From Acidobacteriota bacterium (GTDB taxonomy: Bacteria; Acidobacteriota; Vicinamibacteria; Vicinamibacterales; Vicinamibacteraceae), in contig JBIQIB010000011.1 in assembly GCA_044508265.1 (NCBI GenBank), forward strand, positions 1-56,514: a DNA stretch of 56,514 nt, read 5' to 3'. Made by a program: the position numbers and the translations under genes. The notes beneath the pieces are model-generated. The model did no database searches, was not told where the DNA came from, and was given only the letters and a program-made list of their open reading frames with translations. How positions within the stretch are numbered: the first letter of the stretch is position 1; every line of letters begins with the position of its first letter. Positions 4,557 through 54,338 of the stretch are shown here, in pieces.

Positions 4557-4606
4557 CGCAGCGACGTGAGGCGCCTAACGCCTGACGACGGGAGGGGCTA
4601 GCTCCG

Positions 4607-7368: not shown

Positions 7369-7433
7369 CGCGAGCGCGTTTCACACGGCCGCATGTTTCA
7401 CGTGGCACAAACCACAACCTGACGACTCAGACG

Positions 7434-9201: not shown

Positions 9202-9213
9202 CGCCCCACGACG

Positions 9214-9771: not shown

Positions 9772-9797
9772 GTCACCTAACGCCTGACGCCTAACGC

Positions 9798-18125: not shown

Positions 18126-18157
18126 CAGCCTAACGAAATACGGAGGACGATAGAGAA

Positions 18158-19213: not shown

Positions 19214-19267
19214 CGGGCGGTCACCGACCCTTCACCTAACGACGACGATCACGGAGGCTCACGCATC

Positions 19268-21946: not shown

Positions 21947-22012
21947 CGCCTGACGACACATCCTGCCTGACGACGAGCGTCAGGCGTCACCCGTAGCGGA
22001 GGGCGCGACATC

Positions 22013-23386: not shown

Positions 23387-23438
23387 TGTGACACGTTAGG
23401 CAGGACGACACTCACCCGGGGAGTCTGGACGAACAGCA

Positions 23439-34259: not shown

Positions 34260-34772
34260 ATGCCCGAGAACCGACAGTGTGACCCTGACGACGGCAGCGG
34301 CCGGGGCGGCATCATGCGACCGGGGCCGGGCGAACACCTAGGCTACGCGCGCCGCACCGACCCGCCGCGCGGCTCATGGGCCGCACGCCTGAACGAGAAG
34401 GTCAAGCCTTGGGCGGGGCTCATCGTCACGGCCGGCACGCTGTGCGGCGCCGTGTGGGCCGTGCTCCTGACGTTAGGGTTCAGCCTCACGCGTCCGTCGG
34501 ACGAGATGACCGACGTGCGTGCGCGCGTCGCCGCGCTGGAGGTGGCGGCGGCCGAGGCAAGGGCGCAGCAGGAGCAGTCCGCGCAGTTCCTGCACGCGCT
34601 CGTGAGGGCCGAGTGCATCGCGCTTCGGCGCGGCGACAACGACCTAGCCGTTGCGCTCACCGTGCTGCCGTGCGACGAGGTGTTCCAGTACTGGCCGACT
34701 CGCCCCGCGCCTAACGCCGCTGCGCCGGCCCCGGCCATACCGCGCGTAGTGCCTGACGCGCGGGGGAGGTGA
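34260..34772 (+). CDS. membrane protein, possible holin/lysis accessory
   Basis: One TM helix (GLIVTAGTLCGAVWAVLLTLGF) followed by a coiled coil, at the head of the lysis-like cassette. Confidence 0.45.
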   Translation: MPENRQCDPDDGSGRGGIMRPGPGEHLGYARRTDPPRGSWAARLNEKVKPWAGLIVTAGTLCGAVWAVLLTLGFSLTRPSDEMTDVRARVAALEVAAAEARAQQEQSAQFLHALVRAECIALRRGDNDLAVALTVLPCDEVFQYWPTRPAPNAAAPAPAIPRVVPDARGR

Positions 34773-34776
34773 CGCC

Positions 34777-35631
34777 ATGCCGGATACGATCGTCGAGGTG
34801 GCCGGCGTCAGGCACGTGGCCGTCCTCTCGGTGCACGGGATCGGCGAGCACGGCGAGGGCTGGAGCGACCTGCTGCGCCTAGGCGTCGAGCGCGAGGTGG
34901 CGCGCCGCTACCCGGGCGGCACGCTGGCCGTCACGTGGCGCGAGGTCTGTTGGGGCGAGATCATCGCGCGGCGCATGCGGCGCATACAGGCGGCCCTTCG
35001 CGGTCGTCAGGTGCCGACCTATGTGCGCCGCTGGATGGACGACTTCATGCCTGACGCGGTCAGCTATCGTGAGGCATACGACGAGATACACGACCTGATG
35101 CACGCGGCGCACGATGCGGCGCGGCAAGAGGTTAGGCGCCGGGCGCATCGTCAGGCTGTCGAGGCCGGCGCGGTGCCTGACGTGGCGCGTGAGGCAGGTG
35201 AGGACGCCGAGGCACTGGCGCCGGTCGTCGTCGTGGGGCATAGTTGGGGAAGCGTGATCGCGGCCGATTGGGTCTACGATCGCCGGTCGTCAGGCGTCGC
35301 CGGCCTCGTCACGTTAGGTTCGCCGATCCGCTGGCTGGTGGCGAAGCTGCCGCCTGATGCTATAGACCCCGCCCGTCCGCCGCTGTGGCTCAACGTGCAC
35401 GACGCATTCGACCCGGTCGCCTCGCCCCTTCGCCCGCTAAGCGCCGAGTACGCGCGCGCGGTCACGGAGGATCGCGAGGTGCGGAACGGAACCTTCCTCG
35501 ATCGCCTGCGCCCGATCGGCGGCGTGAGGCGACACCACAACTACGCATCGACGCCGGCCGTGCATGCGGCGATCGTCGACGTAGTCGCAGCGGCTGCGGC
35601 CTTCGCGCTGCCGCCATCACCTAACGCCTGA
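34777..35631 (+). CDS. alpha/beta-hydrolase, GxSxG esterase/lipase-like
   Basis: VVVVGHSWGSVIA is a nucleophile elbow (GHSWG). VAVLSVHGIG lies near the N-terminus. The gene is adjacent to the endolysin. Confidence 0.55.
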   Translation: MPDTIVEVAGVRHVAVLSVHGIGEHGEGWSDLLRLGVEREVARRYPGGTLAVTWREVCWGEIIARRMRRIQAALRGRQVPTYVRRWMDDFMPDAVSYREAYDEIHDLMHAAHDAARQEVRRRAHRQAVEAGAVPDVAREAGEDAEALAPVVVVGHSWGSVIAADWVYDRRSSGVAGLVTLGSPIRWLVAKLPPDAIDPARPPLWLNVHDAFDPVASPLRPLSAEYARAVTEDREVRNGTFLDRLRPIGGVRRHHNYASTPAVHAAIVDVVAAAAAFALPPSPNA

Positions 35632-35923: not shown

Positions 35924-36664
35924 ATGAGCAACCCCGTCGTCACTACGCTCAGATACCTAACGCCTATAGACGAGTTGCCTGACCTGCCGCTCCTGACGAG
36001 CGGCCTGCCGTGGCTCGTCATGCGCGATGCCGGCGTGCAAACGCTCGTGTCGTTCCAGCTATGCGTCGAGGACTACGGGCGCGCAGCCGATTCGCAGGAC
36101 TACGGCGGTCGCCTAGCGCCTGACGCGGTCGACACTCTCGTGCTGCACTGCACAGCCGGCGACACGCTCGACGGCGCGTGGGGCTGGCTGTGGGGCAAGG
36201 AGAACGTCGGCAGCTATCACTACGCGATCGACCGGGGCGAGAGTCCTTCGACGCGCCGCATCATTAGGTGGATCCCGCGCGACACCGTCGCCTATCACGC
36301 CGGGCGTTCGGCGTGGCCGCTGCCGCCCCGCATCCCGGGCACGCGGAACAGCTACCTATGGCGCCCGCGCCAGTCGCTCAACGGCCGTTCGTTAGGTATC
36401 ACGTTCGTGAACCGCAACCTGCCGGTCGATCACCCGACGCGAGGTGAGCCGCTGACGCCGTGGCAGGTTGCGGCGGCCCTATGGCTCGCGGTGGTCGCCC
36501 ACGGCTGGCACCCGCGCCTGACGCCGGACCGCGTGCGCGGGCACTGGGAGGTGGCGCCGGATCGCAAGACCGACCCGGACCCGTCGCTACTCTCGATGCC
36601 CGACTTCCGCACGGCGGTGCGGCTGAATCGCGCGGCGTTAGGCTACGGGCCGCCGGAGGGCTAG
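35924..36664 (+). CDS. N-acetylmuramoyl-L-alanine amidase (Amidase_2/PGRP-type endolysin)
   Basis: LVLHCTAG...YHYAIDR...VAYHAGRS...SLGITFVN...TPWQ...VRGHWEVAPDRKTDPDP matches the Amidase_2 zinc-amidase pattern. Confidence 0.85.
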   Translation: MSNPVVTTLRYLTPIDELPDLPLLTSGLPWLVMRDAGVQTLVSFQLCVEDYGRAADSQDYGGRLAPDAVDTLVLHCTAGDTLDGAWGWLWGKENVGSYHYAIDRGESPSTRRIIRWIPRDTVAYHAGRSAWPLPPRIPGTRNSYLWRPRQSLNGRSLGITFVNRNLPVDHPTRGEPLTPWQVAAALWLAVVAHGWHPRLTPDRVRGHWEVAPDRKTDPDPSLLSMPDFRTAVRLNRAALGYGPPEG

Positions 36665-38978: not shown

Positions 38979-39007
38979 TTGACCGCCCGGGCAGGTTGCG
39001 TTAACGT
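38979..39007 (+). promoter_or_regulatory. sigma-70-like early promoter P-A (-35 TTGACC, 17-bp spacer, -10 TAACGT)
   Basis: It lies in the largest non-coding gap. The block 38978-39040 is nearly identical to 42914-42974. Confidence 0.5.
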
Positions 39008-39064: not shown

Positions 39065-39478
39065 ATGCCCGAGAACACGACCCACCGCGACACCATCGCC
39101 GCCCTGCGCGACGCGATCGGCTACGTGATGCGCGACACGACGAACGCGCTGTCCGGCCTGCGGCCTGACGAGTATTCCCGCCGCGATACGTGGTCCGCGC
39201 TGCTCGATGCGCACCGCGCGTTAGGCAACGCGCTCTATGCCACCGCCCGCAGCAGCGATGGCAGCGAGGTGTTCGAGAACCTGCACCGCGCGGACGAGGC
39301 GCTCGATCACGCGCTGGCGGACGTCAGGCACGCCGAGGCGCGCAGCCTCGCCGGCAAGTTGCTGCCGTACAACACGACGACCAACGTGCTGCTTGCCAGC
39401 CGCGAACTCGACTCGATCATGCAGCGCTGGCCCGACCTCTACGGCCCGGCGTTCGCCGCCGTGTCCGTAAGCGCCTGA
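39065..39478 (+). CDS. hypothetical early protein
   Basis: Conserved initiation region GGAGGAACCGACCATG downstream of the promoter-like block. Confidence 0.7.
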   Translation: MPENTTHRDTIAALRDAIGYVMRDTTNALSGLRPDEYSRRDTWSALLDAHRALGNALYATARSSDGSEVFENLHRADEALDHALADVRHAEARSLAGKLLPYNTTTNVLLASRELDSIMQRWPDLYGPAFAAVSVSA

Positions 39479-39489
39479 CGATTCCCGCA

Positions 39490-39510
39490 GGGGCGGCGCC
39501 CGGCCGCCCC
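39490..39510 (+). promoter_or_regulatory. GC-rich intergenic stem-loop (variant)
   Basis: GGGGCGGC / GCCGCCCC arms between the stop at 39478 and ATG 39541. Confidence 0.55.
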
Positions 39511-39540
39511 GCTCACCCGACACCTGACGAGGACCACGCC

Positions 39541-39747
39541 ATGCCTAGCCAGACGATCACCGCCGCCCTGTCCCTCACGCGCCTGTGCGCCGGCTTCTAC
39601 TCCGCCCGCGTCGGCATCTACGGGGAGACGAGCATCGTCCGCGTTAGGCGCGGCCGGTGGGTCGCTCGCTCCAATGCCGGCGTCCGCCTCGCGGTCGAGC
39701 CGTCGCTCGACGGCCTGCTCCGCATCCTGTACGCGCTCGCTGACTGA
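39541..39747 (+). CDS. hypothetical small protein
   Basis: ATG 39541 after GACGAGGACCACGCC. The upstream part of track ORF 39190-39747 overlaps the previous gene out of frame. Confidence 0.6.
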   Translation: MPSQTITAALSLTRLCAGFYSARVGIYGETSIVRVRRGRWVARSNAGVRLAVEPSLDGLLRILYALAD

Positions 39748-39782
39748 GCGCTGACCCTAACGACCTAACGAGGAACTGAGCT

Positions 39783-40190
39783 ATGCACAGCATCGCTAGC
39801 ATGTCCGTCCTGATTCGCTACTTCGGCGGCACGTACGCCGGCAGTGTCGTCCGCCTGACAAACAAGGCGGTGGATGTGCGCTTCACGCTCGCGTCAGGCC
39901 GCACGATCGTGCGGCGGGTGAGTATCGTCCCGACGCCGTCGCAGCGCGACCACGGCCGCCAGCCGGTGCGGTTCACTATGCCGAGTGCCGACATGGTGAC
40001 GGCGAGCTATACGGCGTTCGGGTCGTTCCGCGCGCTACTGGACGCGCCCAACTACAGGCCGACACTCATGGGCGAGGGCGCGCAGGCGATCCTCGCGAAC
40101 ACCTACGACCACGCGCAGGCTGAGCGCAGCGACCCGCGCCGAGCCTACCGCCGCGACCCGCGCGCGGCGCGCACCACACCTAACGCCTGA
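39783..40190 (+). CDS. hypothetical protein
   Basis: CCTAACGACCTAACGAGGA leader; stop in GCCTGACG. Confidence 0.65.
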   Translation: MHSIASMSVLIRYFGGTYAGSVVRLTNKAVDVRFTLASGRTIVRRVSIVPTPSQRDHGRQPVRFTMPSADMVTASYTAFGSFRALLDAPNYRPTLMGEGAQAILANTYDHAQAERSDPRRAYRRDPRAARTTPNA

Positions 40191-40205
40191 CGAGGAGAAC
40201 CGACC

Positions 40206-40436
40206 ATGCCCGAGCGCACCCTAGACCTGTACCGCGACGCCCCGGAGGCCGATCGTGTCCGCATCCTAGAGGGGACGGACGTCATGCTCACGCAAGAGGG
40301 CGCGGTGCCTGACGACTACAACCCGCTCGATCATGCGCCGTTCTGCCAGCACTGCGACGCGCTGCTCCCGTCGTGGGACTCTATCTGCGCCTGCTCGCGC
40401 GGTATGTCGTTCTACCAAGACGACGAGTATCGCTGA
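40206..40436 (+). CDS. hypothetical small Cys-containing protein
   Basis: GAGGAGAACCGACCATG leader; CQHC...CAC. Confidence 0.6.
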   Translation: MPERTLDLYRDAPEADRVRILEGTDVMLTQEGAVPDDYNPLDHAPFCQHCDALLPSWDSICACSRGMSFYQDDEYR

Positions 40437-40468
40437 CCATCACCTAACGACCTAACGAGGAACCGACC

Positions 40469-41065
40469 ATGCCGAAGAACACCACGCCCAGCCCCGCCGT
40501 TCACGCCGTGCGCCGCACGCCCGCCGGCCGCCTATCGCTCACCGTCCGTGGCGTTACGCACGAGGATCTACTTGTGCGCGTCCTCGTCACCAGCAGCGGC
40601 TGGCCGCACCACGAGACGCCGACGACGTGGGGCGGCCTGTACGACTCGCTGGTGCATACGAGCTATCGGCAGGGAACCAAGCTGGTGTCGCTGGTCGAGG
40701 GCGATCGCCTAACGTACGCCGGGCGCGAGTTCGCCATGTTCACCGAGGGGCGCCTGACGTTCCTGCTGGACGAGGCCGCCGCATACCAGCCGCTGCCTGA
40801 CGAGGACGACGACCCCGCGCTGAGCGTGTCAGAGATCGACGCCGACATACTCGATGCCGCGACCGGGCACGCCGTGACCGCCATGGGCCTGTACCGCGAG
40901 CGCCTGACGCTCACCGGCGGCGAGGCGCTCGTTCGCATCGGCGACCTACTGCGCCGCGACCTGCTGGCGCCTGACGCGGGCTCGCAGAGTGCCGGCCCCG
41001 AGGCCCGCTACGTGGCGACCGAGAAGGGCCGGCTGGCGGTGCAGCAGTTCTACAAAAGGGCCTGA
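40469..41065 (+). CDS. hypothetical protein
   Basis: CCTAACGACCTAACGAGGAACCGACCATG leader. Confidence 0.7.
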   Translation: MPKNTTPSPAVHAVRRTPAGRLSLTVRGVTHEDLLVRVLVTSSGWPHHETPTTWGGLYDSLVHTSYRQGTKLVSLVEGDRLTYAGREFAMFTEGRLTFLLDEAAAYQPLPDEDDDPALSVSEIDADILDAATGHAVTAMGLYRERLTLTGGEALVRIGDLLRRDLLAPDAGSQSAGPEARYVATEKGRLAVQQFYKRA

Positions 41066-41086
41066 CGTTCTGAGCCTGACGACGAC

Positions 41087-41109
41087 GGCCCGCCCATCCG
41101 GGGCGGGCC
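41087..41109 (+). promoter_or_regulatory. conserved intergenic stem-loop GGCCCGCCC-ATCCG-GGGCGGGCC
   Basis: Perfect 9-bp stem, followed by ACCCTAACGACCTAACGAGGAACCGACCATG. Confidence 0.7.
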
Positions 41110-41137
41110 ACCCTAACGACCTAACGAGGAACCGACC

Positions 41138-41413
41138 ATGCCTAAGCAGACCCTGACGCAAGCCCTCCACCTAGCGCGCACCGGGAAGGATCGCCAGTTG
41201 CGCCGCGCCGCGCGCCGCCTGCACGGCCTGCCCGAGGGCGGGTGGGCCGAGACTGAGCAGGCCATGCGCGAGATCATGGGCCTGTTGCCGTTCTCGTTCC
41301 AGCGCGACTACACGCTCGGCGAGTGGGTCGCGGCGACGCACTACGTGGTGCCTGACAAGAGCCGCCCCGGTCGCAGTGCCGGCCGGTGGGCGACGCGCAT
41401 CATGGACGCCTGA
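41138..41413 (+). CDS. hypothetical protein
   Basis: Hairpin plus CCTAACGACCTAACGAGGAACCGACCATG leader. Confidence 0.65.
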   Translation: MPKQTLTQALHLARTGKDRQLRRAARRLHGLPEGGWAETEQAMREIMGLLPFSFQRDYTLGEWVAATHYVVPDKSRPGRSAGRWATRIMDA

Positions 41414-41430
41414 CGAGGAGATACCTGACG

Positions 41431-41817
41431 ATGAGACTGCCCAACCCTGCTGCACGCGACCCGCGCGACGCCCGCCTGCACGGCGTCGTCTACCTGCTGC
41501 ACTTCGCCACGCCGTACGAGCACGCGCGGCACTACATGGGGTTCACGGCCGACCTAGCCGAGCGCCTGCGCGAGCATCGCAGGGGCTACGGCTCGCGCCT
41601 CGTCGGCGTCGTCGCGGCGGCCGGTATCGAGTTCAACGTCGTGCGCGCATGGCACGGCACCCGGTCGGACGAGCGGCGCCTGAAAGGCCGTGGCCTCGGC
41701 GACCTGTGCCCCATCTGCCGCGCCTCGTCAGGCTGTCACCCGCGCAACCCGCGCTGGACGGCCGGCGAGCTAACGCCTGACGAGATACGCCTCGCACTCA
41801 TCCACGCCGCAGCCTGA
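41431..41817 (+). CDS. GIY-YIG-like nuclease-superfamily protein (tentative)
   Basis: GVVYLLHF...HYMGFTADLAERLREHRRG...ERRLK...CPIC resembles the GIY-YIG core followed by a Zn finger. ATG 41431. Confidence 0.5.
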   Translation: MRLPNPAARDPRDARLHGVVYLLHFATPYEHARHYMGFTADLAERLREHRRGYGSRLVGVVAAAGIEFNVVRAWHGTRSDERRLKGRGLGDLCPICRASSGCHPRNPRWTAGELTPDEIRLALIHAAA

Positions 41818-41860
41818 CGCCTGACGACCCTATCACCCTTGCCCGAGGGATCATCCTACC

Positions 41861-42214
41861 ATGACCAGCACAACGACGACACCCGCCGCCCCGTCCCTGC
41901 CGCCCGCCGTGGTGCGCGCCCTATGCCTGTACGTGCCCGCCGGGCGCCTCGTGTACGTCGTCGTCAGGTGGCGCGACGGTGACCGCGTGGCGCTGGCCGA
42001 GGGCACGACAGCAGCCGGGCGCGTGCGTATCCGGCCGTGGATCGCAGCGCGGCGCGCGTACGGCCCGGCTCAGCACGTCGCGCCCGCGCGCGTCCTGCGC
42101 CTCGCCACGCCTGACGACAGGAGGAAGCGGCGCGTCGAGCGTCCGCCGGTGCCGGCCGGTGTCGCCGAACTCATGCGCGGCCTAGCGCCGCGTCCCCGCA
42201 GCCGGCGCGCCTGA
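41861..42214 (+). CDS. hypothetical protein
   Basis: GAGGGA RBS; stop in GCCTGACG. Confidence 0.6.
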   Translation: MTSTTTTPAAPSLPPAVVRALCLYVPAGRLVYVVVRWRDGDRVALAEGTTAAGRVRIRPWIAARRAYGPAQHVAPARVLRLATPDDRRKRRVERPPVPAGVAELMRGLAPRPRSRRA

Positions 42215-42269
42215 CGCGTGCCGGTGCATCATCACCACCATCACCATCACCTAACGAGAGGAACTGACC

Positions 42270-42527
42270 ATGCGGAACCTGACGATCGCTGAGTGCGTCG
42301 CCGACCTGATGCTGGACTTCCCGTGCGCCCCGGCTGAACTGCCTGACGCGCACCCGCACCTGACGTCGCTCGTGGCGTCGCAGCTAGGCGAGACGTATGG
42401 CACCGAGCGCGGGGCGGACAACCTGACGCGCTACGTGTTCACCGACGGCAGCGCGATCGTGGTCGATCGCGTGAACGACACGTGGGACGTCGAGGGCGAG
42501 ACGCCGTTCTCGTGGAAGGGCAAGTGA
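42270..42527 (+). CDS. hypothetical protein
   Basis: CCTAACGAGAGGAACTGACCATG leader. Confidence 0.65.
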   Translation: MRNLTIAECVADLMLDFPCAPAELPDAHPHLTSLVASQLGETYGTERGADNLTRYVFTDGSAIVVDRVNDTWDVEGETPFSWKGK

Positions 42528-42757
42528 GCGCGCCTCGTGAGGCGCCTGACGCGGCAACGGCGGCAGCAACGTGCGAGTTCGAGGCGCTGGTCGTCGTCGG
42601 CCCGGCCTGCACCGAGCCCCCGGCGGGTACGTTCCGGTGGGTGCTGTTCGGCGAGCCCGGCCCGAGCTACCGGCTGTGCGCCCGCCACCTCGACCTGACC
42701 GTGAGCCGGGCGCAGGAGCAGGGTTGGCCCCACGAGGCCACGCGCACGCCCGCCTGA
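42524..42757 (+). CDS. hypothetical small protein
   Basis: GTGA start/stop overlap at 42524. Confidence 0.5.
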   Translation: MSAPREAPDAATAAATCEFEALVVVGPACTEPPAGTFRWVLFGEPGPSYRLCARHLDLTVSRAQEQGWPHEATRTPA

Positions 42758-42808
42758 ACGCCCCGCGCCCGCGCACAATCGGCGCGTGCGCCACGATCGG
42801 CCCCGGAG

Positions 42809-42840
42809 CTAGGGTGACCTATGCCTCCGGGGCCGATCGT
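42809..42840 (+). repeat. conserved upstream box, copy B
   Basis: CTAGGGTGACCTATGCCTCCGGGGCCGATCGT. Confidence 0.7.
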
Positions 42841-42914
42841 CCGTCAGGGGCGATCCTAGGCCGTTCGCCCTAGGTGCCCCCTCGCGCGCGTGGGCGCGAC
42901 CTTCTACCGCCCGC

Positions 42915-42943
42915 TTGACTGCCCCGGCAGGTTGAGTTAACGT
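42915..42943 (+). promoter_or_regulatory. sigma-70-like early promoter P-B (-35 TTGACT, 17-bp spacer, -10 TAACGT)
   Basis: Shares CTTGAC.GCCC.GGCAGGTTG.GTTAACGTGACAGTTGAAGTACCGC..AGTTGACA.CCTGA with P-A. Confidence 0.5.
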
Positions 42944-42977
42944 GACAGTTGAAGTACCGCAGTTGACAACCTGACAG

Positions 42978-42998
42978 GCCGGCCCGCCCGGGGCCGGC
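42978..42998 (+). promoter_or_regulatory. GC-rich stem-loop in the leader of the P-B operon
   Basis: GCCGGCCC / GGGCCGGC arms. Confidence 0.5.
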
Positions 42999-43021
42999 GA
43001 CCCGAACCGGAGGAACCGACC

Positions 43022-43234
43022 ATGACCACCACGCCGATCACCGCCGAGATGAAACTGGAGTGGATCACCGCACGCATCGCCGAGGGTCGCACGGTCTACC
43101 TGACGACCGCGACGCGCGTCACGAAGATCGGCCGTCGGCATCTGGCGCAGGTGCGCGTCCGCGCCGGCCATCTGGAGGTTCAGTACGGCCGGCGCTGGCT
43201 GAACGCCGACTGGGTGAAGATCACCGCTAGCTGA
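43022..43234 (+). CDS. hypothetical small protein
   Basis: GGAGGAACCGACCATG leader downstream of the second promoter-like block. Confidence 0.65.
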   Translation: MTTTPITAEMKLEWITARIAEGRTVYLTTATRVTKIGRRHLAQVRVRAGHLEVQYGRRWLNADWVKITAS

Positions 43235-43299
43235 CGTCTCACGCCTGACGAGCGTCGTGCCCGCGGCGCTCACCACCACCCGATCCGGAGGACACAACC

Positions 43300-44433
43300 A
43301 TGCCCCGCACGACGACCCGCAAGACGACGACCCGAAAGACGACCGCCCGCAAGACGACGACGCGCCGCCGCGCGTCCGCGTCAGGCACCAAGGCCACGGC
43401 CCCGCGCCGCTCGAATGCCGACATCTACGCCGACGTAACGCGCCGCGTCATCGAGCGCATGCAGGCGGGCGTCATGCCGTGGCAGCGCCCGTGGGACGCG
43501 ACCGGCGCCCCGGCCGTCACGTTAGGCATGCCGGCCAACGCCGCGACGCGCCGCGCCTACAGCGGCGTCAACGTGCTGGTGCTGATGAGCGAGCAGATGG
43601 CGAACGGCTACCGCACCGCCGGCTGGGTGACGTTCCGTCAGGCGATCGCCGAGGGCGCCGTGGTGCGGAAGGGCGAGAAGGGCACGGCGATCGTGTTCAT
43701 GCGCAAGGTGTCGGTGCGCGATCGTGAGGCGGGCGAGTCGTCAGGCGGCGAGGGCGAGGACGGCCGCCGCGACATCTGGATGGCGCGCCAGTTCGTCGTG
43801 TTCAACGTCGACCAGTTGGCCGACCTGCCTGATTCGCCCGGCGCGGTGGACCGCCTCGTCAGGCGCATGGGCGGCCCGCTCGCGTCAGGCAGCGCCGACG
43901 CCGACGAGGGCTTCGACGCGATCGCCGCGTGCGAGGCGATGGTGCGCTCGTCAGGCGCGACGATCCGCCACGGTGGCGACCGCGCGTTCTACCGCCCGGC
44001 GTCGGACAGCATCACCATGCCGCCGCGCAAGGCATTCGCCACGCGCGAGGGCTACTACGGCACGCTGTTCCACGAACTCGCGCACTGGACCGGCGCGCCG
44101 CACCGCCTCGACCGCCCGCTGCTCAACATGTTCGGCTCGGAGCGCTACGCGCTGGAGGAACTCGTCGCGGAGATGGCCTCGGCGTTCGTGTCCGCCACGT
44201 TCGGCATCGAGCACGTGTCACAGTCGGCCGCCTACGTCGACCACTGGCTCGCCTGCCTCACGCGCCACGACGCTGAGCACCGCGAACTGGTGACGGCCGA
44301 GGACTTGACAGGCCCGCGCGCACTCGTCAGGTGCGCGACGATGGCGTCGGCCGCCGCCAACTACCTGCTCGGCCTAGCCGGCACGGCCGGCACCGCAGGC
44401 GACGACGAGGGCGAGGACGCCGCCGCAGCCTGA
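43300..44433 (+). CDS. ardC: ArdC-like antirestriction protein (ssDNA-binding N-domain plus zincin metalloprotease)
   Basis: MPWQRPW...YSGVNVLVL...WVTFRQA...VRKGEKGT (ArdC-N/DUF1738 pattern). The C-terminus has YYGTLFHELAHWTG (HExxH). Confidence 0.85.
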   Translation: MPRTTTRKTTTRKTTARKTTTRRRASASGTKATAPRRSNADIYADVTRRVIERMQAGVMPWQRPWDATGAPAVTLGMPANAATRRAYSGVNVLVLMSEQMANGYRTAGWVTFRQAIAEGAVVRKGEKGTAIVFMRKVSVRDREAGESSGGEGEDGRRDIWMARQFVVFNVDQLADLPDSPGAVDRLVRRMGGPLASGSADADEGFDAIAACEAMVRSSGATIRHGGDRAFYRPASDSITMPPRKAFATREGYYGTLFHELAHWTGAPHRLDRPLLNMFGSERYALEELVAEMASAFVSATFGIEHVSQSAAYVDHWLACLTRHDAEHRELVTAEDLTGPRALVRCATMASAAANYLLGLAGTAGTAGDDEGEDAAAA

Positions 44434-44454
44434 CGAGCACCGCACGACGACGAC

Positions 44455-44477
44455 GGGCCGCCCACCCGGGGCGGCCC
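44455..44477 (+). promoter_or_regulatory. conserved intergenic stem-loop GGGCCGCCC-ACCCG-GGGCGGCCC
   Basis: Perfect 9-bp stem with compensatory changes relative to the 41087 copy. Confidence 0.7.
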
Positions 44478-44505
44478 ACCCACCCGACCTAACGAGGACC
44501 CGACC

Positions 44506-45114
44506 ATGACCCGACGCACTCACCTGACGCAGACGCCCGCGCCCGCGACCCGCCCGGTGCCCGCCACGCCTGCCACGCCGACGCCGACGCCCCGCGTCCG
44601 TCTGGAGTTCGACACGTACAACTGCAGCCGCTGCGGCGGCACCGGCTTCTACTCGCGCGGTCGCTGCTTCCTGTGTGGCGGCGCGAAGGTGCGCCTGACG
44701 CCGGCCGGTCGCCGGGCGTACGCGAAGTGGCGGGCGTGGCGCGACGAGCACCTGACGATGACGCCCGAGGAGGCTGCGTCGTCAGGCACGCCGGTGATCG
44801 TGCCGCAGGAGTTCGCCGGCCCGCAGGACGGCGGGACTTACATCAGGTTCAGGCGCCCGCGCCGCGTGCTGGCCGTTCGCCGCCCCGGCCCTGACGCGCC
44901 GCCGACGCAGATGGTCGAGGTGGACATCGACCTGCGGCTGAAGTATTCGCCGAGCCCGTGGCTGCGCTACGACGCCGAGCGCGGCGTGCTGACCATCAGC
45001 GTCATGCCCGATCACCGTTTCTATCGTCAGGCAACCGGCGCCGAGCTTCGCGCCGCGTTCCCGACGCTTGGCAAGGGCGTCCGGCTCGTCGAGCTACCCG
45101 AGCCCGCAGCCTGA
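44506..45114 (+). CDS. zinc-ribbon-containing hypothetical protein
   Basis: CSRCGGTGFYSRGRCFLCGG; hairpin plus CCTAACGAGGA leader. Confidence 0.65.
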   Translation: MTRRTHLTQTPAPATRPVPATPATPTPTPRVRLEFDTYNCSRCGGTGFYSRGRCFLCGGAKVRLTPAGRRAYAKWRAWRDEHLTMTPEEAASSGTPVIVPQEFAGPQDGGTYIRFRRPRRVLAVRRPGPDAPPTQMVEVDIDLRLKYSPSPWLRYDAERGVLTISVMPDHRFYRQATGAELRAAFPTLGKGVRLVELPEPAA

Positions 45115-45126
45115 CGATCACCCGAC

Positions 45127-45149
45127 GGCCCGTCCACCCGGGGCGGGCC
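45127..45149 (+). promoter_or_regulatory. conserved intergenic stem-loop GGCCCGTCC-ACCCG-GGGCGGGCC
   Basis: 9-bp stem with one G-T(U) wobble, followed by ACCCTAACGACCTAACGAGGA. Confidence 0.65.
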
Positions 45150-45177
45150 ACCCTAACGACCTAACGAGGACACCACC

Positions 45178-45696
45178 ATGCGCAATCCTGCCGCCACGAA
45201 CTTTAACGTGCTTTCGCAGTCGCGCGCGGACGAGTACCGCGCCGGCGGAAGCAACGAACAGGGGAACCGCTTCGAGCGGGCGACGGCCAGCGGTCGCGCG
45301 CGCTGCCGCCAGTGCGCGCAGAAGATTGCCAAGGGCGAGCCGGCGCTGGTCGGCTACCACGACTTCAACGGGCACGGTAGCTACACGGCCGTTAGGTGCT
45401 GGCTGCATCTGGAGTGCCCGCCGCTGCCGCCTAACGCGTGGGCACCGTCGATCAGCCTGACGATCACGGACCGTCAGGCGGAAGTGCTGCAGGACTGCGC
45501 GCGCGAGCCCCTGTCGGTCTTTCTGATCTTCGGCCGTGGACTGGCTCGCTCGTACGGTCAGGCTTCCGAACTCGTGCTCAACCTGCGCGCGCGCGGCTTC
45601 ATCGAGCCCGTGCGCTCGACGGACAGCAAGCGCGGCGGCTATGCCACGACTGAGCTAGGCAAGAAGGCACTCGCGGCGTACTACGAGGACGCCTGA
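45178..45696 (+). CDS. putative DNA-binding protein: PARP-type Zn-finger-like N-terminus plus winged-helix-like C-terminus (tentative)
   Basis: ERATASGRARCRQCAQKIAKGEPAL...H..C resembles zf-PARP. The C-terminal LTITDRQAEVL...LVLNLRARGFIEP resembles wHTH. Confidence 0.5.
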   Translation: MRNPAATNFNVLSQSRADEYRAGGSNEQGNRFERATASGRARCRQCAQKIAKGEPALVGYHDFNGHGSYTAVRCWLHLECPPLPPNAWAPSISLTITDRQAEVLQDCAREPLSVFLIFGRGLARSYGQASELVLNLRARGFIEPVRSTDSKRGGYATTELGKKALAAYYEDA

Positions 45697-45710
45697 CGAC
45701 TCGCCCTACC

Positions 45711-45733
45711 GGCCTGCCCATCCGGGGCGGGCC
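45711..45733 (+). promoter_or_regulatory. conserved intergenic stem-loop GGCCTGCCC-ATCCG-GGGCGGGCC
   Basis: 9-bp stem with one G-T(U) wobble, followed by ACCCTAACGACCTAACGAGGA. Confidence 0.65.
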
Positions 45734-45762
45734 ACCCTAACGACCTAACGAGGACACCTACC

Positions 45763-46071
45763 ATGGCCCGTAAGACGAGGAAGGACGCCCGCACCGCGCA
45801 GCACTATTTCGCCAGCACGTACGTCGCGTGGGCGACCGCCGACACGCGCGAGGCTGCAATCAAGGACGCGGTGCGCCGCACGCGTGAGGCAGTGCGCGGG
45901 CGCGGTTTCATCCCGTGGCCGCTGGAAATCCTGTCGTGCGCCGTGCCGCTGCCGCAGTCGTCAGGCTACGAAATCGACAATTACCTGCCGGTGCGCGAGA
46001 CCGGACGGCACGACGTGCAGAAGCATGTGCAGGCATCGCAGCGCGCCACGCCGGCGCGCGTGGACGCCTGA
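45763..46071 (+). CDS. hypothetical protein
   Basis: Hairpin plus CCTAACGACCTAACGAGGA leader. Confidence 0.65.
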   Translation: MARKTRKDARTAQHYFASTYVAWATADTREAAIKDAVRRTREAVRGRGFIPWPLEILSCAVPLPQSSGYEIDNYLPVRETGRHDVQKHVQASQRATPARVDA

Positions 46072-46080
46072 CGACTAACC

Positions 46081-46103
46081 GGCGCGCCCATCCGGGGCGC
46101 GCC
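46081..46103 (+). promoter_or_regulatory. conserved intergenic stem-loop GGCGCGCCC-ATCCG-GGGCGCGCC
   Basis: Perfect 9-bp stem. The C-to-G change in the left arm is compensated in the right arm. Confidence 0.7.
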
Positions 46104-46132
46104 AACCCCAACGCCTGACGAGGAGCCCGCCC

Positions 46133-46420
46133 ATGTCCCGACGCCGTTCAGATACTCCCGCAGCCTGCCGCGCCCGCGCGCGCCGCGCCGCTCGCAAGGC
46201 CGACGAGTGCCGCCAGCGCGCAGCCCAGTGCCGCCAGTACGCGGAACGCGGCTCGCCTGAATCGCGCGCCGGCTACCTAACGCTGGCGCAGAACTACGAC
46301 ATCTTCGCGGAGTCGTTCGACTCGACCGCGGAGTGGGAGCGCAAGAACGCCGCGCGCGCCCGGCGCCGCGAGGCAGCCCGCCGGAAGCACGACAGCCGCG
46401 CCGTGGTGTCCACCGCCTGA
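46133..46420 (+). CDS. hypothetical basic helical protein
   Basis: Hairpin plus CCTGACGAGGAGCCCGCCCATG leader. Confidence 0.6.
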   Translation: MSRRRSDTPAACRARARRAARKADECRQRAAQCRQYAERGSPESRAGYLTLAQNYDIFAESFDSTAEWERKNAARARRREAARRKHDSRAVVSTA

Positions 46421-46458
46421 CGATCACCACCACCTAACGACCTAACGAGGAACCGACC

Positions 46459-46911
46459 ATGACCACGAACATGATCCGCACCGCCCACATGCGCAGCCTG
46501 TTGTCGCCTGACGAGGTGGCCGCCCTCCAGCCCGGCGATCGCGTCGCGCTAGGCGTCGCAGGCGCCACGCACGGCGAGGTTGTCCGCGTGACGCAGGCGC
46601 AGGTGATCGTCGCCGCCTACGCGTACGACGCGGACGGCGAGCGCCGCCTTTCGCGTCAGGAACGCTACTGGCGCACCGGCCGCCTCGCAGGCCACGCGGT
46701 CGGCAGCATCGGCCGACTCCTTGAGCCTGACGAGCACGTCGAGGCCGCGCACCGTGCGCGGGCCGTGAACAAGGTCCGCACGCACCACCTAGCCTACGTG
46801 ACGCACGCCGAGTGGAGGCGCATGCCCGAGGACGTGATCGCGGCCGTGTACGAGGCGATCGCGCCGCACCTAAAGGAGATGCGCACGCTGCCGCCTGTGA
46901 GCGGCGCCTGA
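46459..46911 (+). CDS. hypothetical protein
   Basis: CCTAACGACCTAACGAGGAACCGACCATG leader. Confidence 0.7.
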   Translation: MTTNMIRTAHMRSLLSPDEVAALQPGDRVALGVAGATHGEVVRVTQAQVIVAAYAYDADGERRLSRQERYWRTGRLAGHAVGSIGRLLEPDEHVEAAHRARAVNKVRTHHLAYVTHAEWRRMPEDVIAAVYEAIAPHLKEMRTLPPVSGA

Positions 46912-46923
46912 CGACGCCTGCGG

Positions 46924-46963
46924 GGTTGCCGATTACTGACACTCACGTTAGTGTCAGGCAACC
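46924..46963 (+). promoter_or_regulatory. imperfect palindrome overlapping a promoter-like sequence (-35 TTGCCG, 17 bp, -10 TAGTGT)
   Basis: GGTTGCC-GATTA-CTGACACT-CACGTT-AGTGTCAG-GCAACC, just upstream of the wHTH and HTH gene pair. Confidence 0.45.
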
Positions 46964-46988
46964 TCAACCCGACCCGGAGGACGTGACC

Positions 46989-47369
46989 ATGACCATGACG
47001 ACGACGACCACCGCGCCCGCACCTGACGGCCGCCACGTGCCGCGCCTGACGCGCGCGCAGCACCGTGTGCTGCTGCTCATGGCGCAGGGTGCCCTGCTCT
47101 ATCGCGGCACCGCCTACCCGGTCGGACGGCGCGACGTTGCGATGCCGGCCGTGACGATCCACGCGCTCGTCAGGCGCGGGCTCATGCGCGAGTGGACCGA
47201 GGACGAGTACGCCGCCTCGCCGCACGTGAGGCAGGCGCTGTACCTGCGCTACGTGCTGACGGACACGGGGCGCGAGGTGAGGTTCGCGCTACTGGAGCGC
47301 ATGCGCGCGAACGCCGTGCGCGAGACGGCGCGCGACGACGTAACGCCTGACGAGGGGAGGCAGTCGTGA
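46989..47369 (+). CDS. winged-helix-like hypothetical protein
   Basis: ATG 46989 after GGAGGACGTGACC. LTRAQHRVLLLMAQGALLY...IHALVRRGLM. The upstream part of the track ORF is non-coding-like. Confidence 0.6.
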   Translation: MTMTTTTTAPAPDGRHVPRLTRAQHRVLLLMAQGALLYRGTAYPVGRRDVAMPAVTIHALVRRGLMREWTEDEYAASPHVRQALYLRYVLTDTGREVRFALLERMRANAVRETARDDVTPDEGRQS

Positions 47370-49374: not shown

Positions 49375-50229
49375 ATGACGACGACGACGAAGCCCAACCC
49401 GTTTGCCGAGCCCGCAGCAGCGAAGGCGGCGCGTGACGAGGACCGGCCGCGCGCCGTGACGCTGCACGACCGGGCGCACAGCATCGCGATCCTCACCGAG
49501 TGGGAACACGAGCACTACGACGTGATCCTCGCGAACGACGGCGCACTGCCTGACGAGTTGGCCGCGCTGCTCGATGACGCCGAGGTCGAGTTCACGCAGA
49601 AGGTGACGGCGGTGCGCGCGAAGATCGAGGAACTCGACGCCTCGGCCGACGCGGCTAAGGCCACGAAGGACCGGCTGGCGCAGCGCGAGAAGGTTTTCAG
49701 GAACGCGGCCAAGGGCTTGAAGCGCTACTTGGAGGCGTGCCTCACGACGGCCGGGCGCGATCGCATCGACACGCCGCTCGGCGTGGTAGCTATGCAGACG
49801 AACCCGCCGAGCCTGACGTTCAGCCTGACCTACGCCGAGTACGTCGAGCGCTTCGGCAAGGACGGTGAGCGTGCGCCCGAGTGGCTGCGGGTCGTCCCGC
49901 CGTCCGAGCCGACGGTCGAGGTGGCGAACCGCAAGGAGGCGATCGCCGCATGGGATGACGCGCTGCCTGACGTGTGGGTGCGCGCACATAACGAGGTCGA
50001 ACTGACCGACGACGAGGTGACGGCCGAGACGGAGTACGTCGACTTCCTCGCGGCGCAATACACGGCCGAGCAGGACGGCGAGGTCAGCGACGAGGACCGC
50101 CAGCAGATGCTTGTCGAGCGGCTGGATGCGCTGCTCACGTCGAAGAAGGAGGCGTTCGTGCGCAAGGTCATGGCGACCGTGTGCCCGGGCGTCGAGGTGA
50201 CGCGCGGCCGGTCGGTGCGCCTGCGTTAG
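49375..50229 (+). CDS. Gp157-like coiled-coil protein (recombination-module accessory, tentative)
   Basis: Coiled-coil region EFTQKVTAVRAKIEELDASADAAKATKDRLAQREKVFRNAAKGLKRYLEACL, typical of siphovirus Gp157-type proteins found next to SSAP genes. Confidence 0.5.
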   Translation: MTTTTKPNPFAEPAAAKAARDEDRPRAVTLHDRAHSIAILTEWEHEHYDVILANDGALPDELAALLDDAEVEFTQKVTAVRAKIEELDASADAAKATKDRLAQREKVFRNAAKGLKRYLEACLTTAGRDRIDTPLGVVAMQTNPPSLTFSLTYAEYVERFGKDGERAPEWLRVVPPSEPTVEVANRKEAIAAWDDALPDVWVRAHNEVELTDDEVTAETEYVDFLAAQYTAEQDGEVSDEDRQQMLVERLDALLTSKKEAFVRKVMATVCPGVEVTRGRSVRLR

Positions 50230-50463: not shown

Positions 50464-51432
50464 ATGCACGAAACGGACACGGATACGGGAGCAGTCACGC
50501 GGCTGCCTCACGCCGCGCCGCCGCACAAGCTGTGGACCGACCTGTCGGCGCCGATCCCGTCGGTGCTCATCAAGTGGCGACAGGACGGCAAGGTCACGCA
50601 ACGCGACGGGCGCTTCATTGCGCGCTTCGTCGCATACATCGAGGCGAACACTGTCAGGCAGCGCCTCGACGAGCACGCGCCCGGCGCGTGGAGCCTGTTA
50701 GTCACGCCGCTGCCTAACGCGGCTGACGAGGACGGCGTGGTGCTGTTCGCGTTTCGCGCTCGCCTGACGATTCACGGCGTCACGCGCGAGGACGTCGGCA
50801 CCGGGCACGACTACAAGAGCGCGTCGACGGACGCGTTCAAGCGCGTTGCCGTGCGCTTCGGGATCGGCCACGAACTGTACGACTACGAACAGAACTGGGT
50901 CGAGATGGACGGCGACGGTCGTTATGCGCGGCCGGTCGAGGATCCGGCGCGCGCCTACGCTCGCAAGATGGCGCGACTGAAAGACAAGCGCGTCGAGGAG
51001 GCGAAGCGCGCCGAGCAGCGCATGGACATGGCGAATAAGGCGCGTCGTCAGGCAGGTATGCCGGACTACGCCGACGACGACGACAACCGCGAGACGGGCG
51101 GGCCGCCTGACGAGGGGCCGCAGCCACTCACGAGGCCGTCGGTGGGCGACGACTACGGCGAGGCCGAGGCGCCTGAGCCGGCGCGTCGTCAGGCGCGCAG
51201 CACGCGCTCGCGCGTGCAGGGGTCGTCGTCAGGCAGCAGCACTGGTAGCGATGAGCCGGCCGACGACGTGCCGCTGTGCCCCAATTGCGGCGGCACCATG
51301 TGGGACAACCGCCTGACGAAGCGCAACCCCAAGGCGCCTGACTTCAAGTGCCGCGACCGGAACTGCACCGGCGTCGTCTGGCCGCCCCGCCCGGGCGACG
51401 GCATGGGGCCGGAGGACGAGTTGCCGTTCTAG
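50464..51432 (+). CDS. Rad52/Sak-type single-strand annealing protein with C-terminal zinc ribbon
   Basis: FVAYIEANTVRQRLDE...G...DYKSASTDAFKRVAVRFGIGHELYD matches the Rad52/22 pattern. CPNCGG...CRDRNC lies at the C-terminus. Confidence 0.8.
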   Translation: MHETDTDTGAVTRLPHAAPPHKLWTDLSAPIPSVLIKWRQDGKVTQRDGRFIARFVAYIEANTVRQRLDEHAPGAWSLLVTPLPNAADEDGVVLFAFRARLTIHGVTREDVGTGHDYKSASTDAFKRVAVRFGIGHELYDYEQNWVEMDGDGRYARPVEDPARAYARKMARLKDKRVEEAKRAEQRMDMANKARRQAGMPDYADDDDNRETGGPPDEGPQPLTRPSVGDDYGEAEAPEPARRQARSTRSRVQGSSSGSSTGSDEPADDVPLCPNCGGTMWDNRLTKRNPKAPDFKCRDRNCTGVVWPPRPGDGMGPEDELPF

Positions 51433-51505: not shown

Positions 51506-51820
51506 ATGATGATGACGACCAGAAAGAAGCGGGCTTATCGCTACACGCCGCCGCCGCCGCCTGAGGTGATGGCCGAGCGCGACAGGCAGATCGTACTGGA
51601 CTACCGCGACCGTGGCCTGTCGCTCTACGCCGTCGGCGACCTGCACGGCCTGTCGGCCGAGCGCGTTAGGCGTATCCTTCAGCGTGAGGGCGTCGAGGTA
51701 CGACGCCCCGGCCGACGGCCGCGCTACTGGCGCGAACGCTACACGGCCGCGCGCGAGGCGCCAGCCGCTCTGCGAGTGCCGCCGGTCAGCAGTAGCGCCG
51801 GCGGCGATGCTCACGCCTGA
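51506..51820 (+). CDS. small HTH protein (sigma-70 region-4-like)
   Basis: RDRQIVLDYRDRGLSLYAVGDLHGLSAERVRRILQREGV. Confidence 0.55.
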   Translation: MMMTTRKKRAYRYTPPPPPEVMAERDRQIVLDYRDRGLSLYAVGDLHGLSAERVRRILQREGVEVRRPGRRPRYWRERYTAAREAPAALRVPPVSSSAGGDAHA

Positions 51821-51840
51821 CGACGCGCGCGCCGTGCCCC

Positions 51841-53340: not shown

Positions 53341-53399
53341 GCGCCTACGCCGGCGCCTGACGAGGCGCGGAGCACGCAACCCCAACCGAAACACCTACC

Positions 53400-54338
53400 A
53401 TGCCCAACGAGACGAAGAAGCTGCCGCCCGGCCTCACGCCGCCTAGCGCCGAGGTCGAGGTCGTGATGCAGGACGTAAGCGACGAAGCCGAGAAGCGCCG
53501 CGAGCACGTGTGCGACTGCGGCGAGTCGTTCATCCAGTACCGGCTAGGCGATAAGTGGCTGCCGTCCACGTGCCCGTACTGCGCGAACAGTGAGCGGCGC
53601 CTAACGGCGGACGAGGTCATGGCCGACCGCCGGCGGCGCGACGAGGAGGAACGCCAGCGCCAGCGCGTAGCACGCTTGCAGGTGCCGCGCATGTACGCGA
53701 TCGCGTCGACCGACGACCTGACCGAGCTTGCCGGCCTAGCGCCTGACGAGAAGGCGGCGCAGTTGCTCATCCGCAAGCGCGACCTAGCGCGTCGCTACAT
53801 CGACGCGTGGCCGGACCGGCACACCAACCCGCGTTTCCCGCTGATCGTAGTCATGCGCGGCGCCCCGGGCTCGGGTAAGACGACGCTGGCGTGGGCCGTC
53901 ACGCTCGAACTCGTCAGGCGACACGGGATCCACGCGCGCGTCGCGACGTTGGGCAACATCATCCGCGACCTGCGCGAGCCGTGGGGTCGGCGCGGCACGG
54001 ACGCGGGGCCGTCCGAGCGCGTTAGGCTCGCCGCCTACCACGGCGAGGACTTGCTGGTCATCGACGAGGTATCGACGCACGCCCTCTACGGCGAGCCCCG
54101 GCAGGTACTGTACGACCTGATCGCGCCTCGTGAGGCGAACCTGTCGCCGACGATCCTGACGACGAACGACGACGGCGGCACGATCGAGGACTTGCTAGGC
54201 CCGGCGCTGGTGTCGCGCGCCATGCGGTCCGGCGGCATATGGGAGTTCGGGAAGCACGACTACCGCCCGCAGCTATACGAGCGGGACCACCGCAATGCTG
54301 CCGGCGTCAGGCAGCGGGAGGCAACGAGCGATGAGTGA
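53400..54338 (+). CDS. DnaC/IstB-like AAA+ helicase loader
   Basis: Walker A GAPGSGKTT, Walker B LLVIDEV, and an N-terminal CxC...CxxC zinc motif. Confidence 0.8.
   Translation: MPNETKKLPPGLTPPSAEVEVVMQDVSDEAEKRREHVCDCGESFIQYRLGDKWLPSTCPYCANSERRLTADEVMADRRRRDEEERQRQRVARLQVPRMYAIASTDDLTELAGLAPDEKAAQLLIRKRDLARRYIDAWPDRHTNPRFPLIVVMRGAPGSGKTTLAWAVTLELVRRHGIHARVATLGNIIRDLREPWGRRGTDAGPSERVRLAAYHGEDLLVIDEVSTHALYGEPRQVLYDLIAPREANLSPTILTTNDDGGTIEDLLGPALVSRAMRSGGIWEFGKHDYRPQLYERDHRNAAGVRQREATSDE

Follow-up and report, generated by a model that had tools for sequence, protein, structure and literature searches.

A repeated junction between presumed early genes and a densely recurring word in a siphovirus-like sequence of high G+C content

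In contig JBIQIB010000011.1 (assembly GCA_044508265.1, Acidobacteriota bacterium; the whole stretch of 56,514 nucleotides is called the window below), about fifteen unrelated small genes are joined by one repeated junction, which consists of a stop codon, an optional hairpin and a fixed ribosome-binding site. The 56.5 kb window has a G+C content of 69%, encodes a siphovirus-like protein set and, according to third-position GC analysis, carries all of its genes on the + strand. The junction, hereafter the cassette, is best read as a post-transcriptional module between the cistrons of two polycistronic operons, a reading to which we give somewhat less than an even chance. The genes of these operons (39065 to about 42757, and 43022-46911) are presumed to be early genes. 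Parts of the cassette are copies of a short word, YGCCTRACGM, that recurs through every part of the window.

The cassette and its initiation region

An earlier note on this DNA had described a recurring intergenic unit of about 60 bp, running from a stop codon through a GC-rich stem-loop and a Shine-Dalgarno (SD) sequence to an ATG. Such a cassette is indeed repeated between the early genes, in near-identical elements far above chance. The order stop-hairpin-SD-ATG applies to the full units, which measure 67-78 nt between the stop codon and the ATG; hairpin-free versions exist too, namely a medium form of 38-44 nt with a doubled CCTAACGA and a minimal form of 21-23 nt, in which the stop word GCCTGACGAGGA itself supplies the SD. 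The covariance model that the note proposed as a check was built from the five copies with tight hairpins and searched over the window. It recovered nine further units below E = 0.01, 14 in all, and one more at 0.011. Every one of these lies on the + strand and ends at an ATG; 13 of the 14 are found in the 39.0-46.5 kb region, and one is located upstream of the gene at 35648.

The individual parts of the cassette are similarly over-represented. With at most one mismatch CCTAACGAGGA is matched 25 times (0.34 expected), and with at most three mismatches GAGGAACCGACCATG is matched 17 times (1.45 expected), five of the matches being exact and 12 lying at gene starts in the 39-47 kb block. The 19-mer CCTAACGACCTAACGAGGA has six exact copies in the window, and the hairpin motif CCCAYCCGGGG, with at most one mismatch, has 12 matches where 3.1 are expected. 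Two of the parts named in the note, the stop word GCCTGACGA and the doubled CCTAACG, are not the cassette's own, as both are instances of the genome-wide word. The doubled TAA was considered as a three-frame stop, an idea that fails because the third frame is frequently left open.

The shared translation initiation region, noted earlier for about ten early genes, is real: GAGGA(A/C)CnnACC-ATG is restricted to 18 genes from 39065 to 46989, whereas the SD sequences of the late genes are varied, unlike those in the 39.0-47.0 kb block. In about 12 unrelated genes conservation spans the SD, the ACC-AUG and the opening codons (MP.., MT..), and the similarity between units continues a few codons into the genes. 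The conserved blocks of 50-80 nt, which are 67-100% identical, flank mutually non-homologous genes, and the proteins flanking the units are not paralogous; tandem gene duplication as the source of the repeats is ruled out by the unrelatedness of these proteins. A pattern scan found no promoter-like match inside any unit.

The hairpins

The five tight hairpins, with a 9-bp stem and the loop AYCCG (41087-41109, 44455-44477, 45127-45149, 45711-45733 and 46081-46103), and two looser ones (39490-39510 and 42978-42998) are present as reported, and an eighth, of unrelated sequence and overlooked before, lies at 43250-43271. The repeat hairpins have folding energies of -19 to -21 kcal/mol, the unrelated one of -13.9 kcal/mol. 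Neither the loop AYCCG nor any of the three closing C-G pairs varies among the five tight copies, and the mid-stem covaries. Over six copies 98% of the cells are paired, three of the nine stem pairs are changed on both sides in a compensatory manner and two show G-U pairs, in line with the covariation that had been proposed. None of 500 shuffles reached any of the five measures, and when the register was slid the pairing fell to 35-63%. Folded as antisense, three of the eight hairpins are weaker by 4.6-6 kcal/mol; for the hairpin at 43250-43271 the antisense value is -7.9 kcal/mol. Since G-U pairs would become C-A on the antisense strand, the stem acts in the sense RNA, and it is on this strand a selected structure. 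No Rfam 15 family matched either strand of the whole window up to E = 1.

Six hairpins are preceded by a gene, and in all six cases the stop codon lies inside GCCTGACG. Between the upstream stop and the hairpin the distance is variable, at 9 to 21 nt. On the other side, seven of the eight hairpins have their 3' edge 28-30 nt ahead of the next ATG (23 nt in the leader copy at 42978-42998). Despite its unrelated sequence, the hairpin at 43250-43271 keeps this spacing as well, with 28 nt to the ATG at 43300. The hairpin is in register with the ATG that follows it and not with the stop that precedes it. Because the leader copy has no upstream gene, the hairpin belongs with the downstream initiation region. 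Of the seven copies folded, five leave the SD free in the centroid structure, and the A/C-rich linker is unpaired as well; in the other two copies the first three SD bases close a weak 3-bp helix.

Predicted operons and the order of the units

The + strand of the whole window was scanned with a relaxed σ70/σA-type pattern (TTGMCN, 16-18 nt, TANNNT), which gave three matches only, each of them intergenic and heading a gene block. As these predicted promoters, P1 to P3, lie only at block heads, the cassettes appear to sit inside two operons. All features described in this section are on the + strand.

P1 (TTGACC-N17-TAACGT, 38979-39007) heads the operon from 39065 to about 42757. Its first unit (39476-39543, E = 1.5e-06) has its stop in GCCTGACGA and contains the looser hairpin 39490-39510 (8 bp, loop GCCCG), which ends 30 nt before the ATG at 39541, and an SD in CCTGACGAGGA. 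A unit without hairpin (39745-39785, E = 2.5e-06) follows, with a doubled CCTAACGA at 39756-39774, an SD and the ATG at 39783. The shortest form (40188-40208) uses the stop word GCCTGACGAGGA as SD, followed by ACCGACC and the ATG at 40206, and another unit without hairpin (40434-40471, E = 4.8e-09) combines a doubled CCTAACGA at 40443-40461 with GAGGAACCGACCATG. The full unit at 41063-41140, which scores 86 bits, has its stop in GCCTGACG, the hairpin 41087-41109 (GGCCCGCCC/ATCCG/GGGCGGGCC) ending 28 nt before the ATG, a doubled CCTAACGA at 41112-41130 and again GAGGAACCGACCATG. A degenerate unit with a single CCTAACGAGAGGAACTGACCATG is found at 42220-42272 (E = 3.2e-05).

P2 (TTGACT-N17-TAACGT, 42915-42943), where a 24-nt core of P1 is exactly repeated, heads the operon 43022-46911. 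The 5'-leader of its first gene (42974-43024, E = 1.4e-08) carries the hairpin 42978-42998 (8 bp, loop GCCCG) and then GGAGGAACCGACCATG, with no upstream cistron. The unrelated hairpin 43250-43271 (GAGCGTCGT/GCCC/GCGGCGCTC, with two G-U pairs) belongs to the unit 43232-43302 (E = 0.0011), upstream of an ArdC-like gene. Four full units come next. At 44431-44508 the third pair of the hairpin 44455-44477 is flipped from C-G to G-C, and a single CCTAACGAGGA leads to the ATG at 44506; the units at 45112-45180 and 45694-45765 each show one G-U pair in their hairpins (45127-45149 and 45711-45733) and a doubled CCTAACGA (45152-45170 and 45736-45754) before the ATGs at 45178 and 45763; at 46069-46135 the fourth pair of the hairpin 46081-46103 is flipped, and CCCAACGCCTGACGAGGA precedes the ATG at 46133. 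The last unit (46418-46461, E = 3.9e-11) lacks a hairpin and has a doubled CCTAACGA at 46433-46451 with GAGGAACCGACCATG. P3 (TTGCCG-N17-TAGTGT, 46926-46954) overlaps a palindrome and marks the end of the cassette block.

For about 60 nt the segments of P1 (38979-39045) and P2 (42915-42975) are almost the same, the transcribed GACAGTTGAAGTACCGC..AGTTGACA with its repeated AGTTGA motifs being part of the match, and this common segment may be a shared operator. The -10 element of P3 lies inside the palindrome CTGACAC-N8-GTGTCAG, flanked by GGTTGCC..GGCAACC (46926-46960), which looks like a repressor site.

Downstream of P2 five or six hairpins follow each other in series, with no internal promoter match. 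The stems are followed by ACCCTAACGA and similar sequences, and a U-tract of 7-9 nt is absent from their 3' side. From this absence it had been argued that they are not canonical terminators. The observation stands, but the argument carries no weight: the entire 56.5 kb contain no T5 and only five T4 runs, and nothing in a T5-free genome could pass such a test. The hairpins share with intrinsic terminators a GC-rich stem (8-9 bp), and they have neither the U-tract nor a position at the end of a transcription unit. A scan of the 38-48 kb region gave no terminator-like site.

A word that recurs throughout the window

The core CCTRACG of the word occurs 423 times on the two strands of the window, where about 26 copies are expected. 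CCTGACG accounts for 209 copies on the + and 102 on the - strand and CCTAACG for 66 and 46, respectively, against about 6.6 per strand expected from base composition. On both strands the flanks are alike, with Y and G before the core and A or C after it. Copies are 133 bp apart on average, and their spacing (coefficient of variation 0.80) is more regular than a random one. Of all copies, 294 lie inside the 66 called genes, yet the density there, 6.4 per kb, is lower than the 11.9 per kb of the remaining sequence; with one copy in 906 nt, the methyltransferase gene nearly lacks the word.

Within genes the word is bought at the expense of codon choice. Pro-Asp pairs are encoded as CCTGACG in 74 of 118 cases, though CCT is a minor proline codon, and copies on the opposite strand likewise recruit TCA, CGT-CAG and GTC-AGG, the rare codons imposed being CCT, TCA, TTA and AGG. 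Pro-Asp and Leu-Thr dipeptides reach about twice their expected frequency; the word changes protein sequences as well as codon usage. When synonymous codons were shuffled, 47 copies of CCTGACG were expected on the + strand and 139 are observed; on the - strand the values are 9 and 79, and for CCTAACG on the - strand 1.6 and 40. A comparison of the large terminase with its orthologues places the word sites at orthologue-variable positions or on rare codons such as TTA. These data point to selection on the word as DNA, in both orientations. On this view the junctions would simply be the places where the word coincides with gene ends and can be packed at the highest density. The stop codon of about 22 of the 66 genes lies inside the word.

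Two further ideas were rejected. That the word is a by-product of the removal of CCWGG does not account for the 74 Pro-Asp pairs written as CCTGAC, for which a minor proline codon, CCT, is used. As judged by eye, neither the word nor the hairpin loop is complementary to 16S rRNA over more than 7 nt, which is at chance level. Inverted pairs of the word can form hairpins of their own, e.g. TCGTCAGGC-N7-GCCTGACGA, as seen at 21932-21986, 12666-12689, 45455-45479 and 53231-53254.

The word is absent from the nearest metagenomic relatives, i.e. those of the capsid protein and the large terminase, and 33 IMG/VR loci with a gene for a TET-associated glycosyltransferase (TAGT) have no comparable word. 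No viral or cellular genome rich in the word was found among the matches listed, only tandem coding repeats; the cellular scan covered clustered triples of the word in 185,579 genomes, and densities like that of Chi would escape it. Text searches of the literature returned primer sequences only. A genome-wide word of this kind seems to be without precedent in the sequences and texts searched.

What the cassette may do

In the reading as a post-transcriptional module, the cassette would act in four consecutive parts. Translation of the upstream gene would end at a stop codon within the genome-wide word GCCTGACGA. The optional GC-rich hairpin, formed in the sense RNA with its 3' edge 28-30 nt before the next AUG, would come second, followed by a G-poor, A/C-rich single-stranded stretch with one or two copies of CCTAACGA, the last of which merges into the SD (ACGAGGA), and by the standardised spacer and start (A/C)CnnACC-AUG. 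By trapping the local GC-rich RNA in a single stable fold, the hairpin would keep the initiation region single-stranded regardless of the upstream gene. It could also bookend the message, blocking 3'-exonucleases after cleavage in the C-rich linker (ACCCUAACGA) and shielding the 5' side of the downstream segment. The outcome would be a uniform, strong and independent translation start for unrelated genes. The centroid folds of five of the seven copies keep both the SD and the A/C-rich linker free of pairing, and for this reason we favour the module. Direct observation covers the structure and the strand on which it forms, its AUG register, its position within the operons and, in the predicted folds, an SD that is not paired; effects on stability, processing and insulation are our inference. 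The roles listed in the earlier note, namely a processing or stabilising hairpin, an attenuator or a regulator site, remain the right candidates.

Several points weigh against the module. Any effect on processing, stability or translation is deduced from sequence. The copies all belong to a single genome, where they are paralogues of recent origin, and the covariation amounts to double changes at three pairs plus a small number of G-U pairs; searches of IMG/VR, the JGI metagenomes and the ArdC relatives turned up no relative that carries the cassette. Three junctions have the doubled word and no hairpin, and since these work without it, the hairpin would be dispensable for initiation as such. 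The constant loop AYCCG and the closing CCC/GGG pairs would fit a protein-binding hairpin equally well. Finally, if the host polymerase or a cofactor terminates without a U-tail, attenuation gains weight.

Attenuation, in which the hairpins are leaky terminators without U-tract or factor-dependent attenuators, seems unlikely to us. It would produce a declining gradient of expression along the operons, or be overridden by a phage antiterminator, and the copy between P2 and the first gene, a classic place for an attenuator, would be a leader attenuator. The hairpins are GC-rich and stable (-19 to -21 kcal/mol) and mostly follow directly after a stop codon, and in a genome without T5 any intrinsic termination must work without a U-tract. 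Such terminators reportedly exist in the early region of actinophage phiC31 (Ingham et al., 1995). With five or six hairpins in series and no internal promoter, however, even modest termination would starve the distal genes, and a terminator would not need a register to the downstream ATG. At hairpins that have no U-tract, recombinant mycobacterial RNA polymerase failed to terminate whether NusA and NusG were present or not, although the same paper cites earlier reports of purified RNA polymerases, notably mycobacterial, terminating without one (PMC3993855). Efficient termination is disfavoured because the hairpins are serial within operons and AUG-registered and because the mycobacterial polymerase reads through. 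Less probable still is binding of an RNA-binding regulator encoded by the phage, to the hairpin, to the initiation region or to both, the regulator being either a translational repressor that turns off the early genes, like RegA of T4, or an antiterminator of the N/boxB type. The invariant loop and closing pairs above a covarying mid-stem are as expected for loop recognition, the conservation from the SD into the first codons of about 12 unrelated genes exceeds the needs of ribosome binding, and the unit is restricted to one temporal gene block. On the other hand, the 43250 hairpin differs in both loop and stem and the loops at 39490 and 42978 are GCCCG, so that position and stability are conserved over sequence; the invariant loop may merely reflect recent duplication of whole units, as the flanks are equally conserved; and no candidate regulator was identified among the early proteins, most of which lack a family match.

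The repeat could also act mainly as DNA, which we consider improbable. It would then be either a portable recombination module that moves small genes from phage to phage, like the PeSL (promoter-early stem-loop) of T4-type phages (PMC4122927), or an inverted-repeat operator for a DNA-binding protein, as was suggested for the ESAS (extended start-associated sequences) of Cluster K phages (PMC3203893, which describes both SAS and ESAS). The 50-80 nt blocks of 67-100% identity beside non-homologous genes favour such a role, as does the similarity that reaches a few codons into the genes, which is expected of crossover points. The G-U pairs and the strand-specific stability, however, indicate RNA rather than duplex DNA, and compensatory changes hit both half-sites, something incompatible with an operator recognised by its sequence. 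Moreover, the unit has no promoter, unlike PeSL, and no second cassette-bearing genome was found that could show shuffling. A role in DNA would explain the spread of the unit and is compatible with a function in RNA. A further reading starts from the asymmetric word of 9-10 bp, and we think it less likely than not: the cassette would be the visible tip of a genome-wide code, and a machine tracking along the DNA, duplex or unwound, would read the word. The word could work in the manner of Chi, or be the target of the phage's own block of ParB-like protein, methyltransferase and glycosyltransferase. In the Chi-like case it would stop or convert an end-processing nuclease of the host at whatever point the genome happens to end. 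The repeats CCTGACGA and CCTAACGA at the junctions would then exist because non-coding DNA allows the densest packing of the word.

Comparison with known elements

For 15 years phages have been known to carry start-associated cassettes in their early regions (SAS/ESAS, PeSL), and the closest known kind to the cassette described here are the SAS/ESAS of the Cluster K mycobacteriophages (PMC3203893). Both are asymmetric, SD-containing repeats a few bases upstream of the start codon, with near-exclusive ATG starts, in one orientation and only in the non-structural half of a siphovirus genome; both precede genes of unrelated families, and about half of the copies have an inverted repeat just upstream. 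The sequences are nevertheless unrelated, the SAS being the 13-bp GGGATAGGAGCCC at 3-7 bp before the start and the present element CCTAACGAGGAACCGACC. The arms of the ESAS are 17 bp long and imperfect, with no preservation of RNA pairing, and a DNA-binding protein was proposed for it (PMC3203893), whereas the stem found here has 9 bp, covaries and contains G-U pairs. The cassette is, unlike SAS/ESAS, built in part from a genome-wide word. The function of SAS/ESAS was still untested in 2025 (PMC12699233).

Like the PeSL of T4-type phages (Arbiol 2010, PMC2839356; Comeau 2014, PMC4122927), the cassette is a short composite stem-loop repeat amid small unrelated early genes in a plastic region. 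PeSL, which also mark breakpoints of indels or replacements between related genomes, combine a terminator with an early σ70 promoter, whereas the cassette has no promoter match and its hairpin is joined to a ribosome-binding site. Intercistronic hairpins that stabilise or process a message, lack a U-tract and plausibly form barriers to 3'-exonucleases are also known from REP elements, the puf operon and the RNase III sites of T7. The cassette resembles these as a stable stem-loop between cistrons of an operon that could plausibly act as such a barrier, but it differs from all of them in its fixed register of 28-30 nt to the AUG and in its 5'-leader copy, and stems of 8-9 bp are too short for T7-type RNase III sites (about 20 bp, two helical turns). 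The nut sites of lambdoid phages (boxA, then boxB), which lie just downstream of early promoters and act together with an N-like protein, also combine a linear element with a hairpin; here, however, the order is reversed, the approximately eight copies lie mostly far from promoters, and no N-like protein could be identified, most early proteins being without a family match.

Chi sites, DNA uptake sequences and the cyanobacterial HIP1 are over-abundant short words that occur within genes at the expense of codon choice. The word described here has this in common with them, and shares with uptake sequences the inverted, hairpin-forming pairs (21932-21986). Those are words of host genomes, while this one was seen in one phage only; to our knowledge one copy per 133 bp is several-fold denser than Chi, uptake sequences or HIP1. 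It is also unlike the stoperators of Cluster A phages, which are tens of intergenic sites in one orientation, compared with 423 sites on both strands and 294 within called genes.

With its covarying stem, its fixed AUG register and its variants with and without hairpin, the cassette is a good test system for insulation, stabilisation and regulation, and a natural model of standardised gene junctions in high-GC hosts. The word, if it is a true recognition signal, would be the densest selected oligomer of any phage genome, as far as we know, and a direct handle on a new DNA-protein interaction.

Searches for relatives

A search for the cassette in related genomes, also proposed in the earlier note, yielded no carrier. 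Megablast of the 39-47 kb region against 50,697 phage records returned nothing. When the major capsid protein, the large terminase and the amidase were searched by tblastn, there was either no match or one of at most 27% identity; the best protein matches to isolates are 25-27% identical, and at the DNA level the window resembles no isolated phage. The nearest relatives come from metagenomes, and their capsid proteins or large terminases are 52-57% identical, e.g. 52% for the capsid protein of locus L001 and 53% for the terminase of L002, and neither of these two loci has the cassette; nor does any of the ArdC relatives, whose identity does not exceed 42%. Homologues of the α/β-hydrolase and of the methyltransferase were uninformative with respect to the host.

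The cassette 19-mer had no match in IMG/VR. In the JGI metagenomes CCTAACGACCTAACGAGGA was found in two unrelated contigs (L244, 1040-1058, and L245, 8518-8536 on the - strand; 64% and 43% GC). Both matches lie directly upstream of an ATG and supply its SD, the contigs being otherwise dissimilar, and they may be due to chance or represent a convergent, translation-favouring leader. A search with the hairpin 20-mer gave a single chance match.

Gene content and other features of the window

The identified genes on the + strand include those for the large terminase (10600-12264), the major capsid protein (18134-19213), a presumed tape-measure protein (an open reading frame of 1637 aa, 23400-28313), an α/β-hydrolase (34750-35631), an amidase (35924-36664), the ArdC-like protein (43300-44433), Gp157 (49375-50229), Rad52 (50464-51432) and a DnaC-like loader (53400-54338). 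Directly before the large terminase, at 7275-10766, are encoded a ParB-like protein (7275-8327), the TET-associated glycosyltransferase (PF20691, E = 5e-34), a small-terminase-like basic protein and an N6/N4 DNA methyltransferase (9795-10766). No TET/JBP enzyme or hydroxymethylase was found to accompany the glycosyltransferase. An open reading frame of 795 aa at 4586-6973, for which no Pfam or PHROG family match was obtained, contains nine tandem copies of a 72-nt (24-codon) repeat at 5879-6794.

Several short sequences are missing from the window. CCWGG does not occur at all, where 132 copies are expected from a Markov model and 172 from synonymous shuffles; ACCGGT, AGGCCT, ATCGAT and CTCGAG are likewise absent, and CCGCGG, GGGCCC and GAGCTC are depleted about ten-fold. 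The missing and depleted palindromes, CCWGG included, make a strong case for a signature of restriction avoidance.

Upstream of the DnaC-like loader, about 1.5 kb (51820-53360) lack a third-position GC coding signal. This region holds an iteron-like array (52494-52860) of the palindrome GTCACTA-CCC-TAGTGAC, in at least six copies 24-150 nt apart, which is likely to be the replication origin. An 80-nt repeat is present at 1-80 and 56211-56290; its copies are 96% identical and diverge beyond, and do not form a clean circular overlap. Finally, a separate 10-bp hairpin at 19201-19225 holds the stop codon of the capsid gene in its loop.

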